Assembly: GCA_964016885.1 (NCBI GenBank)
Contig: OZ024758.1
Location: 4,960,001-5,024,000, forward strand
Direction of reading: 5' to 3'
Source: Eledone cirrhosa
Taxonomy: Eukaryota
DNA: 64,000 nt
The position numbers and the translations under genes were made by a program. Of this stretch, positions 10,585-22,627 are shown one piece after another. The notes beneath the pieces are model-generated. The model was not told the DNA's origin, did not search any database, and worked only from the letters and a program-made list of their open reading frames with translations. How positions within the stretch are numbered: position 1 is the first letter of the stretch; each line of letters opens with the position of its first letter.

Positions 10585-11325
10585 CCACCGCCATCACCAC
10601 CATCACTGCCACCACCACCATCACTGCCACCACCACCACCATCATCACCATCACCACCATCACCACCACCACCACCATCACTGCCACCACCACCACCACC
10701 ACCATCACCACCATCACCACACCACCACCACCACCATCACCACCACTATCATCACCACCACCATCATCACCACCACCACCGCCATCACCACCATCATCGC
10801 CATCACCACCACCGCCGCCATCACCACCGCCACCATCACCACCACCACCGTCTCCACCACCACCTCCACCATCACCACCATCACCGCCACCACCACCATC
10901 ACCACCACCATCACCACCACCATCACCACCATCATCACCATCACCACCACCACCACCATTATCTCCACCATCACCACCACCACCGTCACCACCACCACCA
11001 TCACCACCACCACCATCATCACCATCACCACCACCACCACCACCATTATCTCCACCATCACCACCACCACCGTCACCACCACCACCATCACCACCACCAC
11101 CACCATCACCGCCATCACCACCACCACCACCATCACCACCACCACCATCACCACCACGACCACCACCATCACCGTCACCACCACCACCACCACCATCACC
11201 ACCATCACCACCACCATCATCACCATCACCACCGTCACCACCACCATCACCACCACCACCACCACCACCACCATCACCACCACCACCACCACCACCGTCA
11301 CCACCACCACCATTATCTCCACCGT
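10585..11325. repeat. (CAC/CAT)n trinucleotide low-complexity tract
   Basis: Seen directly. It generates spurious poly-Pro/His/Gly/Val ORFs. Confidence 0.95.
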
Positions 11326-11989: not shown

Positions 11990-12490
11990 GAGCATAAAAA
12001 GCAGTTGTAAAACTTTTGAGGAATGTCGTCTAGAACATAAATAACTGAATCGTCAGCTGCGGAAGGCCTGTGATCACAGTCTTGATGGAGTCATCAGTAG
12101 TTGACATGCAATTGCTGTCACCGTGTACTCCTCTCAAAGGCTGGTTATGTTAATCACCTGAAGTCACATGAAAGGATAACCACCCGCAACACCGCTCAAC
12201 AAAGATCTGGCGAAACAACTTGCGTGATATGCAACAAAGTGTGTAAAACTAGTTCCGGACTAAAAAGACACACATGGTGGTACATAAAGATTGTGTCCCA
12301 CAGGGTGACACCACCGGTCCTGTGGAAAGCACAACTCTCTTCTGTCACCTGTGTTGTAAACCATGCAGAGCTACAGCTGGCCTACAAAGCCATCTACGGA
12401 GTTATGGACGCAGGTGGGATGATAACGAAGAATCAATAAGAATCAATAAGAGACGGCAATCGTCTGAAAGGCAAAGCTAACCTCGTCAAC
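11990..12490 (+). mobile_element. RTE-type LINE 3' end with three C2H2-like zinc fingers (disrupted)
   Basis: SIKSSCKTFEECRLEHK*LNRQLRK, then CNCCHRVLLSKAGYVNHLKSH, CVICNKVCKTSSGLKRH and (frameshifted) CHLCCKPCRATAGLQSHLRS. Confidence 0.65.
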
Positions 12491-15081: not shown

Positions 15082-15113
<32 letters not shown>

Positions 15114-15147
15114 GAAAGATTTGAATGGATACAGTTTAGTTGAAAGG

Positions 15148-15271
15148 AATTTATTGACACGTGTTTCTATAACAGTTACATAACCTAAAACAGCTATCTA
15201 CAAACTTTTAGTTATGCAGACATTCAATATTTCAATGTTATTGTTTACTGTCATTTCATCAGAATAATATT
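15148..15271 (-). ncRNA. Same hammerhead ribozyme, downstream pseudo-LTR of copy 1
   Basis: Reverse complement of 22352-22475. Predicted cleavage after 15156. Confidence 0.75.
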
Positions 15272-15857
15272 ACTGAGGACCTATTTAGTTTTTATAGAGA
15301 ATATTAGGAGGAAGGGGTGAAGTTGTTAGAAGAATAGTTGAAGGAGTGGTTTTTCGATAGCAGTGAGAATTCTTGGTGGCAGTGATTAATTAGATTCCCA
15401 TCTGTTGTTTTGACATTTTTTATAGAATATATTATTGGTTATTTTTCTAAATCTATAGAAGGATTAGAGATAGTAAAGATATGCTTGGTTGGTTTTGTGT
15501 TTGCACTTAACATTCAGACTTAAATTTTTCTTTCAAGTGTACGTATTCTTTCACCCACGCATTCACACACAAATATATTTGCACACCTCTACAAAATACA
15601 TATACTCACAATTCACATATTCATACTTACATATATATACACATGCATACACATATATATACACACATGTATTCCTGTACATACATACGCGCTCATGTGT
15701 GTACATTTTCATACTCAACTTATCTTTATATATACACACGTATAGACACACACATATATACATACATACTCTAGTCCATGTGTACACACATACACATACA
15801 TACACATCCATATACACATACATACATACACACATATATATACATATATACATATAC

Positions 15858-15902
<45 letters not shown>

Positions 15903-15903
15903 C

Positions 15904-15952
<49 letters not shown>

Positions 15953-16221
15953 AGCACTTTAATACATGAATACACTTACATCTAACTATACACATCAAAC
16001 ATATATATATATTTACTTATTTATATACATTTTCACATATATATACATACTTATGGACGTTTTTAGACACATTCATTATCGCATATTTGTACCTATTCTC
16101 ATCAGCATATCTTTTCATTATTAGTATGGTAATTTAAGGTTATTAATATATGTTGAAAAGAGATTGTTTTTATATTTTTCTAACTAGATTAAGGTTTATA
16201 TAGTTGGGGGATGTCCCTCTT

Positions 16222-18543
16222 TTATGTAATATTCGGCTTGTAGTGGGAAAAAAGGGTTTTAGTTCTGTGACGGCAGAATAATGTTCGTTCAATTCTGTTA
16301 TTCAGCAGTTTCTTCTTGTGTGTGATTATGTAATAAATCTCAAGATTACACAATTTGCAGAAATTTTGGCTCCTGGAAAAGCTTTGGGTTTTAGCTAATT
16401 TTTCCCATTTTAGGGTAAACTTTTGATTGCTATCCCTGAGCGTCCAAGCTTTCTCTGCTAAAGTTGTTACATTTCTTTGGCTCTGGTGTTTTATTGAGTA
16501 AGAATGCCTATACAATCGAGATTTAAACGATGTTGCCGTTGATCCCACGTAATACCACTCGTTGCCTCCGGATTTAATGGTACACTTATAAATAATATTT
16601 TTTTCCAGGCAGTTATTGCCGAGGGGGCAGTTGTCAGGATAGGTGCAGTTACAGTTGTGTACGTTGGGTTTTCTCTGGAGTAGTATTGCGGACGAACTTA
16701 GGTGTGGTTTATTTATGTTCTGTAGTGTATTGTCTACTGTTTTTTTGGGGTTCTTTGTACTTAAGTTCTTAGTGTTTTCGTTTAACCTTCTAGTATTGAT
16801 CTTTTTTATGTGTTGTTCAAGGTTTAACGCTGTAGAGTATGACAGTCTTATAGTGGTAGGGTTTAGGATTTTGTGGTATTTGTGTGATGTGGGAAAATGT
16901 CTTTTAATTATTTTAAAGAAGAGTACTGGTAAATTTGTACTAATGGAGCTATTGTATTCGGGGTTATACCATAAGTACTCTTTGCATCGCTTTCTATTAG
17001 TTTTGTTTGTTGGTTTACTGGTGTGCATACTATGGTAGTAAGTGTGGTTTGGTGTTGTGTTATTATATCTACCTATGTGGGATTTATTTTGGGTGTTTTG
17101 ATTGTTCCCATCTATGTACTCTATTTTGTTGAGGTAGCCTGCTTTACTAAGGGCGTTATCGTAGTACTCGGCGTGTTCCTTAAATACTTGTATGTTAGAA
17201 GATAGACCCGAGATTCTAAGGGAAATATTTTTAGGGATAGATTTAATTATAGAGATGGGGTGGTTAGACCCAACATTTACGTATTTGAGATTTTCATTCA
17301 ATTTATGAAACGGTTTAATCAAACCAGAGTTTAAATTGAGTGTGACATCCAGGAAGTTAACTACTTTAAGGTTGTATTCATATGTTATAGTTAGTCCTAT
17401 TTCGAGTAGTAGTTTTCTTATATCTTTGCGTAGTTTTTCTAGTTTTTGGTTATTAAGGTTTTTAGCTAGGAGGAGAACATCGTCGCGGTATATTCCGCCG
17501 TGGAGATTGCTGAATTTTTCCTGGAGTCTAAAGGCGATAAATAACCCCACAATATCAGTTATTTCCGCCGAATCGTTAGAGCCCATTGTTATGTCAAAGT
17601 TAGAGGGTCTATCTTTACGTACCCAATAACTGTTCTCAAATTTGACTATAGTTTTCCTAGCTTCTAATATAATCTTAATTTCATCGTTTGTAAGGTCGGA
17701 GTTATCCTTAGCAAACTTAATGGCTCTATTCAAAGTTTCAGGTGATATCGATGAGTAATATTCATCGATATCAAACTGGATAAACTTAGATTTATTCTTA
17801 TTGCTAATGCTATTAAACCATCTTATTGCTTCTTGGGTCTTCCCCCAGAGTTTAATGTTAACCTTAGCCTTAATTTGGGGGATGATTCTATCTAAGATAT
17901 ATTTGCTTATTTTACCTATATCTGATTTAGAGGGGCAGATTAATCTAATTTTAGGGTCATTATCAAAGTTTACCTTGTGGTCCTTAAGATTGAAAGTGGG
18001 TACCGCCGGTAAGAGTGGTCCTGTCCTATCTTCGATTCCGAGATTTTTCACTATTTCGCATGCCTCATCATTGATGTGCTTAAGGGTTACTTCACTCGTT
18101 TTTCTATATTTTTTATGTAATTCTTTTCGAATGAAGTTGTTGTATGTAGTGCAATCCATAGTGTACAGGTTTGATGTTTTGTCCGCTTTTACTACAATTC
18201 CTTTGGTGTTTTTAAGGTCGTCCAGTAGTTTTTTTATATCTTTCTGTAATTTGCTGTTGGTGTTGCGTCCTTTGAATTTAATTTTAAGGATTAAGTTCAT
18301 AAGGTCCTGCTCAAATGCATCTAATAGTGGGTTGGTGGGTGGGTTTTTACAAGTCCTAAAACCGAATTTTTTGTTTACACCACTTTCTAATGTTGAGTTC
18401 ATACGGCTTCTATCATAGTGGAGCGTTTTCCACCTGACACGTCGAATGAATTCATTAGTTTTTTGAATCATGCTCAATAAATATTCCTTTCTACCTTGGG
18501 TTGGTATGTTTTTGAGTGACATATCCAGGTAGTGTTTTTCCAT
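16222..18543 (-). CDS. Penelope-like element ORF (773 aa): reverse transcriptase plus C-terminal GIY-YIG endonuclease, probably Hydra clade
   Basis: Uninterrupted ORF with ATG in context acaATGG. RT motifs: KADKT, FIQFDIDEYYSSI (A), ITMGSNDSAEITD (B'), GIYRDD (C), VNFLDVTLNL (E). Linker CNCTYPDNC (CxCx5C). GIY-YIG-type NIIYKC...YYVGST...FKSRLYRH, then KW, CKLC..E and LLN...E....CRH. Confidence 0.95.
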   Translation of the reverse strand: MEKHYLDMSLKNIPTQGRKEYLLSMIQKTNEFIRRVRWKTLHYDRSRMNSTLESGVNKKFGFRTCKNPPTNPLLDAFEQDLMNLILKIKFKGRNTNSKLQKDIKKLLDDLKNTKGIVVKADKTSNLYTMDCTTYNNFIRKELHKKYRKTSEVTLKHINDEACEIVKNLGIEDRTGPLLPAVPTFNLKDHKVNFDNDPKIRLICPSKSDIGKISKYILDRIIPQIKAKVNIKLWGKTQEAIRWFNSISNKNKSKFIQFDIDEYYSSISPETLNRAIKFAKDNSDLTNDEIKIILEARKTIVKFENSYWVRKDRPSNFDITMGSNDSAEITDIVGLFIAFRLQEKFSNLHGGIYRDDVLLLAKNLNNQKLEKLRKDIRKLLLEIGLTITYEYNLKVVNFLDVTLNLNSGLIKPFHKLNENLKYVNVGSNHPISIIKSIPKNISLRISGLSSNIQVFKEHAEYYDNALSKAGYLNKIEYIDGNNQNTQNKSHIGRYNNTTPNHTYYHSMHTSKPTNKTNRKRCKEYLWYNPEYNSSISTNLPVLFFKIIKRHFPTSHKYHKILNPTTIRLSYSTALNLEQHIKKINTRRLNENTKNLSTKNPKKTVDNTLQNINKPHLSSSAILLQRKPNVHNCNCTYPDNCPLGNNCLEKNIIYKCTIKSGGNEWYYVGSTATSFKSRLYRHSYSIKHQSQRNVTTLAEKAWTLRDSNQKFTLKWEKLAKTQSFSRSQNFCKLCNLEIYYIITHKKKLLNNRIERTLFCRHRTKTLFSHYKPNIT

Positions 18544-18744
18544 TGTTGTGGTTGCGTTTGCTGTGTGGGTTGCTCGACTTTACAGGAGGTAAATATACAG
18601 TTTTTTCCGTTGTGTTGTAATATAAATATTACACACAGTAGATTATCAGCTCACGTAGAGTTTGCTCGACGGTTCCAGTTGTAGTTCCAAAAGTAATCCG
18701 GAGAAAAATAGAAAGATTTGAATGGATACAGTTTAGTTGAAAGG

Positions 18745-18868
18745 AATTTATTGACACGTGTTTCTATAACAGTTACATAACCTAAAACAGCTATCTACAA
18801 ACTTTTAGTTATGCAGACATTCAATATTTCAATGTTATTGTTTACTGTCATTTCATCAGAATAATATT
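18745..18868 (-). ncRNA. Same hammerhead ribozyme, upstream pseudo-LTR of copy 1
   Basis: Direct repeat of 15148-15271. Predicted cleavage after 18753, about 210 nt upstream of the ATG. Confidence 0.75.
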
Positions 18869-19454
18869 ACTGAGGACCTATTTAGTTTTTATAGAGAATA
18901 TTAGGAGGAAGGGGTGAAGTTGTTAGAAGAATAGTTGAAGGAGTGGTTTTTCGATAGCAGTGAGAATTCTTGGTGGCAGTGATTAATTAGATTCCCATCT
19001 GTTGTTTTGACATTTTTTATAGAATATATTATTGGTTATTTTTCTAAATCTATAGAAGGATTAGAGATAGTAAAGATATGCTTGGTTGGTTTTGTGTTTG
19101 CACTTAACATTCAGACTTAAATTTTTCTTTCAAGTGTACGTATTCTTTCACCCACGCATTCACACACAAATATATTTGCACACCTCTACAAAATACATAT
19201 ACTCACAATTCACATATTCATACTTACATATATATACACATGCATACACATATATATACACACATGTATTCCTGTACATACATACGCGCTCATGTGTGTA
19301 CATTTTCATACTCAACTTATCTTTATATATACACACGTATAGACACACACATATATACATACATACTCTAGTCCATGTGTACACACATACACATACATAC
19401 ACATCCATATACACATACATACATACACACATATATATACATATATACATATAC

Positions 19455-19501
<47 letters not shown>

Positions 19502-19513
19502 CATATATACACA

Positions 19514-21401
19514 ATATAGAAAAACGAGTGAAGTAACCCTTAAGCACATCAATGATGAGGCATGCGAAATAGTGAAAAATCTCGGAATCGAAGATAGGAC
19601 AGGACCACTCTTACCGGCGGTACCCACTTTCAATCTTAAGGACCACAAGGTAAACTTTGATAATGACCCTAAAATTAGATTAATCTGCCCCTCTAAATCA
19701 GATATAGGTAAAATAAGCAAATATATCTTAGATAGAATCATCCCCCAAATTAAGGCTAAGGTTAACATTAAACTCTGGGGGAAGACCCAAGAAGCAATAA
19801 GATGGTTTAATAGCATTAGCAATAAGAATAAATCTAAGTTTATCCAGTTTGATATCGATGAATATTACTCATCGATATCACCTGAAACTTTGAATAGAGC
19901 CATTAAGTTTGCTAAGGATAACTCCGACCTTACAAACGATGAAATTAAGATTATATTAGAAGCTAGGAAAACTATAGTCAAATTTGAGAACAGTTATTGG
20001 GTACGTAAAGATAGACCCTCTAACTTTGACATAACAATGGGCTCTAACGATTCGGCGGAAATAACTGATATTGTGGGGTTATTTATCGCCTTTAGACTCC
20101 AGGAAAAATTCAGCAATCTCCACGGCGGAATATACCGCGACGATGTTCTCCTCCTAGCTAAAAACCTTAATAACCAAAAACTAGAAAAACTACGCAAAGA
20201 TATAAGAAAACTACTACTCGAAATAGGACTAACTATAACATATGAATACAACCTTAAAGTAGTTAACTTCCTGGATGTCACACTCAATTTAAACTCTGGT
20301 TTGATTAAACCGTTTCATAAATTGAATGAAAATCTCAAATACGTAAATGTTGGGTCTAACCACCCCATCTCTATAATTAAATCTATCCCTAAAAATATTT
20401 CCCTTAGAATCTCGGGTCTATCTTCTAACATACAAGTATTTAAGGAACACGCCGAGTACTACGATAACGCCCTTAGTAAAGCAGGCTACCTCAACAAAAT
20501 AGAGTACATAGATGGGAACAATCAAAACACCCAAAATAAATCCCACATAGGTAGATATAATAACACAACACCAAACCACACTTACTACCATAGTATGCAC
20601 ACCAGTAAACCAACAAACAAAACTAATAGAAAGCGATGCAAAGAGTACTTATGGTATAACCCCGAATACAATAGCTCCATTAGTACAAATTTACCAGTAC
20701 TCTTCTTTAAAATAATTAAAAGACATTTTCCCACATCACACAAATACCACAAAATCCTAAACCCTACCACTATAAGACTGTCATACTCTACAGCGTTAAA
20801 CCTTGAACAACACATAAAAAAGATCAATACTAGAAGGTTAAACGAAAACACTAAGAACTTAAGTACAAAGAACCCCAAAAAAACAGTAGACAATACACTA
20901 CAGAACATAAATAAACCACACCTAAGTTCGTCCGCAATACTACTCCAGAGAAAACCCAACGTACACAACTGTAACTGCACCTATCCTGACAACTGCCCCC
21001 TCGGCAATAACTGCCTGGAAAAAAATATTATTTATAAGTGTACCATTAAATCCGGAGGCAACGAGTGGTATTACGTGGGATCAACGGCAACATCGTTTAA
21101 ATCTCGATTGTATAGGCATTCTTACTCAATAAAACACCAGAGCCAAAGAAATGTAACAACTTTAGCAGAGAAAGCTTGGACGCTCAGGGATAGCAATCAA
21201 AAGTTTACCCTAAAATGGGAAAAATTAGCTAAAACCCAAAGCTTTTCCAGGAGCCAAAATTTCTGCAAATTGTGTAATCTTGAGATTTATTACATAATCA
21301 CACACAAGAAGAAACTGCTGAATAACAGAATTGAACGAACATTATTCTGCCGTCACAGAACTAAAACCCTTTTTTCCCACTACAAGCCGAATATTACATA
21401 A
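19514..21401 (+). pseudogene. 5'-truncated RT/GIY-YIG ORF of the inverted PLE copy
   Basis: Lacks roughly the first 145 codons, including KADKT. The remainder is identical to 16222-18543. Confidence 0.85.
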
Positions 21402-21720
21402 AAGAGGGACATCCCCCAACTATATAAACCTTAATCTAGTTAGAAAAATATAAAAACAATCTCTTTTCAACATATATTAATAACCTTAAATTACCATACT
21501 AATAATGAAAAGATATGCTGATGAGAATAGGTACAAATATGCGATAATGAATGTGTCTAAAAACGTCCATAAGTATGTATATATATGTGAAAATGTATAT
21601 AAATAAGTAAATATATATATATGTTTGATGTGTATAGTTAGATGTAAGTGTATTCATGTATTAAAGTGCTTATATATATATATATATGTGTATGTGTGTG
21701 TGTATATGTGTGTATATATG

Positions 21721-21765
<45 letters not shown>

Positions 21766-22351
21766 GTATATGTATATATGTATATATATGTGTGTATGTA
21801 TGTATGTGTATATGGATGTGTATGTATGTGTATGTGTGTACACATGGACTAGAGTATGTATGTATATATGTGTGTGTCTATACGTGTGTATATATAAAGA
21901 TAAGTTGAGTATGAAAATGTACACACATGAGCGCGTATGTATGTACAGGAATACATGTGTGTATATATATGTGTATGCATGTGTATATATATGTAAGTAT
22001 GAATATGTGAATTGTGAGTATATGTATTTTGTAGAGGTGTGCAAATATATTTGTGTGTGAATGCGTGGGTGAAAGAATACGTACACTTGAAAGAAAAATT
22101 TAAGTCTGAATGTTAAGTGCAAACACAAAACCAACCAAGCATATCTTTACTATCTCTAATCCTTCTATAGATTTAGAAAAATAACCAATAATATATTCTA
22201 TAAAAAATGTCAAAACAACAGATGGGAATCTAATTAATCACTGCCACCAAGAATTCTCACTGCTATCGAAAAACCACTCCTTCAACTATTCTTCTAACAA
22301 CTTCACCCCTTCCTCCTAATATTCTCTATAAAAACTAAATAGGTCCTCAGT

Positions 22352-22475
22352 AATATTATTCTGATGAAATGACAGTAAACAATAACATTGAAATATTGAA
22401 TGTCTGCATAACTAAAAGTTTGTAGATAGCTGTTTTAGGTTATGTAACTGTTATAGAAACACGTGTCAATAAATT
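22352..22475 (+). ncRNA. Type I hammerhead ribozyme with extended, branched stem II (PLE 3' pseudo-LTR)
   Basis: ttatt-CTGATGA(22361-67)-a-atgacagt...actgttat-a-GAAA(22456-59)-cacgtg-TC-aataa. Stem I is ttatt/aataa, the stem II base is 8 bp, and stem III is the palindrome ACACGTGT. Folded by eye. Confidence 0.75.
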
Positions 22476-22627
22476 CCTTTCAACTAAACTGTATCCATTC
22501 AAATCTTTCTATTTTTCTCCGGATTACTTTTGGAACTACAACTGGAACCGTCGAGCAAACTCTACGTGAGCTGATAATCTACTGTGTGTAATATTTATAT
22601 TACAACACAACGGAAAAAACTGTATAT

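Follow-up and report, generated by a model that had tools for sequence, protein, structure and literature searches.

The usual genomic form of a Penelope-like element (PLE) is a partial tandem accompanied by an inverted, truncated copy, and the inverted arms and tails are still described as an undefined part of the PLE cycle (Craig et al. 2021, PMC8557442). A tail at one end of such insertions has been described (Craig et al. 2021, PMC8557442; Arkhipova 2013). On the ribozyme side, type I hammerhead motifs occur in both repeats of PLEs, and a circular template was put forward as a hypothesis in 2014 (Cervera and de la Pena 2014, PMC4209133). One PLE, the Poseidon element PAc of Anolis, provides an in vitro precedent for several of these steps: two internal start sites of reverse transcription are in print, both DNA strands were cut and extended, a dimer was predicted and ribozyme mutants inserted normally, the ribozyme being dispensable (Frangieh et al. 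2024, PMC11167929). Here we analyse a two-armed insertion of a PLE of the Hydra clade in a stretch of 64,000 nucleotides from the cephalopod Eledone cirrhosa (contig OZ024758.1, positions 4,960,001 to 5,024,000; this whole stretch is called the window), together with its relatives in the same 3.0 Gb genome. Copies of this element end at two fixed sites beyond the predicted hammerhead cut, and head-to-head insertions combine one end of each kind.

In twin priming of LINE-1, a long interspersed nuclear element (LINE), both target ends prime on one RNA, which gives rise to an inverted segment. With LINE-1, the internal position of the second start varies and the arms have no overlap; in the element analysed here, both putative starts have fixed positions and the same sequence is usually copied into the two arms. 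The likeness to PAc lies in a tail bounded by two internal starts of the reverse transcriptase (RT) downstream of the hammerhead, in the cutting and extension of both DNA strands, which we propose here, and in ribozyme cleavage that is not required (PMC11167929). PAc belongs to another clade, however, and its starts lie in the open reading frame (ORF) and are not homologous to the target, whereas here they would lie in the 5' untranslated region (UTR) and show TA microhomology; the part of that paper drawn on here reports no rule of one site of each for PAc.

Copy ends and the predicted cleavage site

Positions are given as bases past the predicted hammerhead cut on the sense strand of the element (+1 is window 18752). 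According to the original prediction, the hammerheads define the mobile unit. We found that 29 of the 30 full-length loci have their 3' end either at +44-46 (19 loci) or at +160 (10 loci) and none at the cut, the remaining locus running off its sequence. These positions are referred to below as site A (about +45) and site B (about +160; TA microhomology stretches B alignments to +163). In addition, the cut is read through by 116 of the 132 arms in resolved pairs. At least three further families are present in the genome (33-41% amino acid identity; 41% for family 2 and 34% for family 3), and their ends fall at +43-52 and +135-138 (family 2), +40-47 and +113-115 (family 3) and +34-39 and +112 (family 4, 5 loci). 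The distance from the predicted cut of each of these four families to its site A is thus 34-52 nt. Copy ends are not set by the predicted cut, and the idea that the hammerheads delimit the mobile unit is not supported.

For 5' ends, patterns demanding a wrong base before a given position were used, and truncations were then sorted from point changes. No enrichment was found exactly at the cut (+1), where 5/16 were 5' ends, in comparison to 8/23 at +11, 7/15 at -7 and 5 of the first 30 of 63 at +15. The figure for +2 (19/25) is pooled from several positions by ATA microhomology and has no matched control. Even when all are counted, 5' ends at the cut represent at most about 1% of roughly 2650 ends. 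A fossil of cleavage in the form of 5' ends piled at the cut, some of them with both arms, was therefore rejected, the control positions being equal. The lack of a 5'-end excess in this family agrees with the results on PAc, for which the data drawn on here include zero RNA-seq reads ending at the cut (Frangieh et al. 2024, PMC11167929). Clustering of 5' ends at 19015-19100 (17/48, P = 0.02) is not claimed as a transcription start, as this interval was picked after viewing the data.

Pairing of the two ends

The distribution of the two kinds of ends among arms was analysed in 130 loci (48 picked by a B end, 40 by an A end, plus the full-length loci). These contained 82 head-to-head junctions, of which 66 join an A end to a B end and none joins A to A or B to B; 12 run off the locus (several of these are the same locus, C22) and 4 are complex. 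In the C1 coordinate census (100 A and 81 B ends), which overlaps the A-selected junction sample, outward pairs within 12 kb were A+B in 48/48 cases, and 3 further close pairs were not outward. The sister families gave 25 A+B pairs and one A+A pair (family 2; 26 pairs, tallied by eye) and 7 A+B pairs out of 7 (family 3; among 14 loci). Neither the strict one-of-each pairing nor the conserved distance between hammerhead and site A was found in the literature searched, older subscription papers and one supplement being outside its reach.

A perfect palindrome of one arm plus flank was seen at L256/L275; it is either a secondary inverted duplication or an assembly fold.

Relationship between the two arms

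Haplotypes were compared between arms and between the repeats within an arm, after omission of 7 loci (duplicates of one locus, double insertions and a case with a 321-nt repeat, described below) and masking of the microsatellite. The arms of one insertion differ at 49/38,180 sites and the repeats within an arm at 16/34,606 sites, in comparison to 0.85% between insertions. At polymorphic sites, discordance was 6/939 between arms and 3/907 within an arm, where about 192-193 would be expected in each case from random copies. In 8 of the 66 pairs the 5' ends of the two arms lie no more than 3 nt apart, where permutation gives 0.34; this looks like run-off of both arms from one broken RNA. Arm A reaches further 5' in 32 pairs, arm B in 24 and both equally far in 10. 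The B arm holds 115 nt that are absent from A, and in 12 pairs it is too short to overlap A. Overlaps of 1-10 nt were found at 45/66 junctions.

Priming at two fixed sites and alternative explanations

These features are most likely explained, as far as genomic copies can tell, by both ends of the cut (TA)n target priming reverse transcription at two different fixed internal sites of the RNA. The steps would be as follows: (i) the endonuclease nicks both (TA)n strands, (ii) each target 3' end anneals to site A or site B through TA microhomology, (iii) two RT active sites, probably on one RNA, run 5'-ward and the trailing one displaces the leading cDNA, (iv) both RTs pass the hammerhead, the template being uncut or re-ligated, and (v) the two cDNA ends join by short microhomology, producing the head-to-head junction. 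For this scheme we infer a single RNA molecule and two RT subunits. As for the form of the template, we lean towards a linear read-through RNA, a circle being the less probable of the two. The conserved hammerhead may be a landmark for site A or may cut at another stage.

A wider rule can be put forward tentatively, and we regard it as rather doubtful in its full extent: double priming in Hydra-clade PLEs would be obligate and asymmetric, with an RT dimer using exactly one of each fixed start on one RNA (possibly a circle made by the hammerhead) for the two ends of a cut (TA)n target, and the first start lying about 35-50 nt behind the ribozyme. If true, obligate double priming would explain the inverted arm, the one-sided tail and the pseudo-long terminal repeat (pseudo-LTR), three features for which the field records no explanation, and would give the hammerhead a role as landmark. 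Irrespective of this rule, the copies constitute a large and clean data set on how PLEs come to have an inverted arm and a tail on one side; the strict pairing seen in three families and the similar hammerhead-site A distance in four make the question assayable. For a clade without earlier biochemistry, the data also speak against a mobile RNA that ends at the hammerhead cut.

Several observations weigh against double priming on one RNA. An A+A locus exists in family 2, though both its flanks are identical, and five of the family-2 pairs were tallied by eye on fragmented alignments. Single-armed insertions occur: 26 of the 88 end-selected loci have no called partner, and while a few of these hold a short or broken partner arm (by eye), the rest appear single-armed. 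No 5' end is common to both arms within 12 nt in 56/66 pairs, and the agreement of haplotypes also follows if one active locus gives two RNAs. The asymmetry is left unexplained, since equal start sites on both strands are reported for PAc in the material drawn on (Frangieh et al. 2024, PMC11167929), and a long-range helix joining sites A and B, considered as a candidate, was rejected (pairing probability 0.0). Lastly, everything is deduced from finished genomic insertions.

The alternative that survives best, and which we take as a serious if secondary possibility, is the circular template hypothesized by Cervera and de la Pena (2014, PMC4209133): two hammerheads paired via palindromic stems III would excise a unit-length RNA that is ligated, and the RT would roll round it. 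Such a template would be compatible with dual priming. In favour of the circle, four families retain the hammerhead fold although its letters differ, and in two of them stem III is a perfect 8-nt palindrome; the arms cross the unit boundary seamlessly and repeat up to 2.3 units; the repeats within an arm are near-identical, two whole units at one locus differing by 1 base; and full-length arms run far into the upstream unit (one of the queries selects for such arms). However, read-through transcripts of tandem genomic copies, which do exist, predict the same DNA, and 5' ends are not in excess at the cut. The two repeats of the L037 arm carry different subfamily haplotypes (two diagnostic sites), for which a single-unit circle needs a template switch. 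Moreover, PLE hammerheads are described as weak in vitro (Cervera and de la Pena 2014, PMC4209133) and the ribozyme was dispensable in the one element tested (Frangieh et al. 2024, PMC11167929).

It is less likely that the arms were copied from two RNAs of the same locus, one per arm, held in an asymmetric complex, for example by the palindromic stem III. Such a complex would account for the agreement of haplotypes and for 5' ends that are mostly independent (56/66), and would give the conserved palindrome a use, but the scattered 5' ends shared by both arms (8/66 against 0.34) would be left unexplained and an extra rule would be needed to bar A+A and B+B pairs.

A somewhat smaller probability is given to formation of the head-to-head structure by self-priming or fold-back, the two ends being produced by endonuclease resolution of a DNA intermediate. 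Both processes are in print (Arkhipova 2013; Craig et al. 2021, PMC8557442), one end of each kind would result if the two strands of a hairpin duplex were nicked at different places, and 10/66 junctions are near-palindromic. Fold-back, which demands nesting of one arm in the other in a fixed direction, fails because either arm may be the longer one, because B includes bases missing from A and because the two arms have no sequence in common in 12 pairs. In vitro, the positions of the starts on the RNA coincide with the ends of the tail (Frangieh et al. 2024, PMC11167929). As for a linear, hammerhead-cut monomer of 3597 nt as the usual template, the few arms that start at the cut (in 4 loci both arms do so within 4 nt) equal the counts at control positions, and since 3' ends of full-length copies lie past the cut, arms cross it and 5' ends are not in excess there, such a monomer is highly improbable and already contradicted as the main route.

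Two loci with unusual repeats were noted. The mixed repeats of L037 could derive from a template switch, gene conversion or a chimeric source. L031 (2758-4583) is a two-armed A+B insertion, both arms of which repeat a 321-nt unit (from 20 nt before the cut to +301) two to three times. Four compared units differ by at most 1 base, the joint lies away from the cut and the first half of the core is missing; either rolling on a small circle or a tandem source that was copied would account for this structure.

Structure of the insertion in the window

The features of the insertion are summarized in Table 1. Pseudo-LTRs, an inverted 5'-truncated copy and a tail are present, as is typical of PLEs. 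The original prediction recognized only the direct arm as the element, which is too short, the inverted arm with its third hammerhead having been overlooked. The direct repeats, previously given as ~805 bp, are indeed present (~810 bp, offset 3597, exact over 15111-15896). It was also proposed that the two hammerheads define an exact 3597-nt RNA monomer. This number is the period of the repeat, so that any motif inside the repeat recurs 3597 nt apart and the spacing of the hammerheads says nothing about the ribozyme; the 'monomer' is a tandem period only, with 3' ends that lie past the cut. Units at another locus are 3599 nt long. Beyond the junction, the inverted arm differs from the direct arm at 1 site in about 3000 bases, and its end lies 115 nt beyond that of the direct arm in the element. 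Short TA microhomology to the target is found at both site A and site B.

Table 1. Coordinates of the two-armed insertion and its parts (positions in the window)
Feature	Position	Strand	Remarks
Whole two-armed (head-to-head) insertion in (TA)n	15111..22627	.	
Direct arm	15111..19513	-	Truncated upstream unit (pseudo-LTR) and full unit; ends at site A (+45)
Inverted arm	19513..22627	+	5'-truncated inside RT; ends at site B (+160; 115-nt 'tail')
Upstream pseudo-LTR copy	18708..19518	-	
Downstream pseudo-LTR copy	15111..15920	-	
Internal copy of the stretch from site A (18708) to site B (18593)	18593..18708	-	Within the 5' UTR
Intact ORF, 773 amino acids	16222..18543	-	Telomerase-like RT, CxCx5C linker, C-terminal GIY-YIG-type endonuclease without CCHH
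ORF copy in the inverted arm	19513..21401	+	5'-truncated, otherwise identical
Type I hammerhead motif 1	18748..18864	-	Core starts 18859; predicted cut after 18753; 88-nt stem II region; palindromic stem III
Hammerhead motif 2	15151..15267	-	Predicted cut after 15156
Hammerhead motif 3, in the inverted arm	22356..22472	+	Predicted cut after 22467

The hammerhead motif

The two hammerheads with predicted cuts that had been recognized earlier were recovered together with the third one: the descriptor gave 3 matches on both strands of the window and 0 in 1,946,802 shuffled bases. The motifs have the core CUGANGA/GAA/NUH with three helices. Stem I consists of 5 bp, all AU; the stem II region forms one long hairpin; stem III, a perfect 8-nt palindrome, has a self-duplex of about -10 kcal/mol, and the palindrome suggests a dimeric form (Cervera and de la Pena 2014, PMC4209133). 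For the monomer, the active fold is 4 kcal/mol less stable than the minimum-energy fold. At positions 10.1/11.1, where most hammerheads have G10.1-C11.1, A is opposite A; U opposite U is common at this pair in the published Hydra motifs (Craig et al. 2021, PMC8557442). A search of Rfam gave no hammerhead match at E ≤ 1, just microsatellite microRNA look-alikes under their thresholds.

In families 2, 3 and 4 a hammerhead occupies the corresponding position although the letters of every stem differ, which argues for selection on the fold. The strict descriptor caught families 1 (the family of the window) and 3 only, and the hammerheads of families 2 and 4 were read by hand. The stem III of family 2 is another perfect 8-nt palindrome. 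In comparison to the PLE motifs of Cervera and de la Pena (2014, PMC4209133), shared features are a type I motif in both repeats, a short helix I, a long helix II, an unpaired base 5' of stem II and a palindromic helix III, which is taken there to imply a dimer; the minimal hammerheads of that study lack helix III, whereas helix III is present here, stem II has a long hairpin and G10.1-C11.1 is absent.

About 400 nt beyond the ORF, L290 and further loci of family 3 contain another hammerhead-like copy, which has diverged and has G where cleavage would occur. It sits about 1.4 kb upstream of the end-marking hammerhead and is probably inactive.

In one run of one study (X4), low-depth contigs corresponding to window 18730-19150 display A>G changes in clusters, and window 18780-18809 is matched by a loose end in which 8/9 T are read as C and nothing else is changed (by eye). 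There is a hint here of A-to-I hyper-editing on both strands, as would be expected of double-stranded RNA formed by two-armed copies or by the long stem II.

Protein and clade assignment

The element is a new, young family of the known Hydra clade of PLEs. Its 773-amino acid frame has zero stops, in accordance with the intact RT and GIY-YIG ORF reported earlier. The protein contains RWK (position 37), DKT (121), CxCx5C (631), CxxC (729) and CxH (757), so the DKT, CxCx5C and CxxC features were correctly seen, as was the absence of CCHH; DKG, PKIHK and Cx2-5CxxC were also sought in the protein and none was found. DKT/S is kept in 120/120 homologues. The GIY-YIG region has two strands at 650-669 with IY..YVG and a single Cys between the GIY-like and YIG-like strands, and the nearest Atlas clusters contain GIY-YIG. 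Pfam assigned no family to the protein and its GIY-YIG family matched just 2/45 aligned members; a sequence search of the Protein Data Bank gave zero matches. The structure model has a mean confidence score (pLDDT) of 86 and its top fold match is telomerase RT (TERT, E = 2e-9). The protein is identified as an RT from this predicted fold and from its homologues, 296 of which were found at E ≤ 1e-10 among 8000 candidates scored.

The assignment to the Hydra clade made in the original prediction is supported by the protein motifs and by the published hammerhead table. The element shares with this clade RWK, DKT, CxCx5C, CxxC, CxH, the absence of CCHH, a (TA)n target and a type I hammerhead (Craig et al. 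2021, PMC8557442), and in a visual check against the alignment of the same paper its protein matched the Hydra rows and not the Neptune rows. As for the hammerheads listed there, stem III of Hydra-1_cRog and Penelope-17_HM closely resembles that of our element, and stem II is often flanked by one additional base on either side, as here. There are differences as well: the stem II region is 88 nt long here and about 12-24 nt in the Hydra rows, the tail 115 nt against 30-40, and the unit 3597 nt against mostly <3 kb (PMC8557442). This last value is a tendency and not diagnostic according to the same source, and the unit exceeds 3 kb because of a long microsatellite-rich 3' UTR.

A quick unrooted tree without outgroup, which took in 26 proteins (22 chosen among the 120 homologues listed, plus 4 encoded in this genome), groups the element with family 2 and an Argonauta protein (100 in the SH-like approximate likelihood ratio test, SH-aLRT). 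Hydra elements were previously known from an octopus (Craig et al. 2021, PMC8557442); judged by eye, Hydra-1_Obim is a separate family from this element and is closer to family 3.

Copies, sister families and target

The 40 best-scored of 5101 candidate copies are near-full-length with 99-100% identity, and a frame of at least 765 amino acids is retained in 35/39 full-length loci. Searches with exact patterns, all counts of which are lower bounds, yielded at least 1487 A ends, at least 1163 B ends (at least 135 of them of the youngest variant) and at least 35 read-throughs into the 5' UTR; reversed-pattern controls for the end-plus-TA patterns gave 0 matches. At least 4 nt of TA repeat directly follow 125/132 ends, a share that is inflated because the loci were mostly picked by patterns ending in TA, although the full-length loci, which were not picked in this way, have the same ends. 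The (TA)n targeting proposed earlier is thereby supported. The element had also been thought to be probably still active: recent activity is borne out by the retained frames and the near-identity of the top copies, while present activity is not.

Families 2 (L240-L289), 3 and 4 (L290-L339) all have many intact copies in the same genome, in which an additional group with 758-amino acid frames was noticed besides them.

Other features of the window

Long (TA)n tracts are abundant elsewhere in the window, and a (CAC/CAT)n array of 740 bp occupies 10586-11323. A short frame with two C2H2-like motifs is located at 12101-12439 (+), which we assume to be perhaps the end of a LINE.

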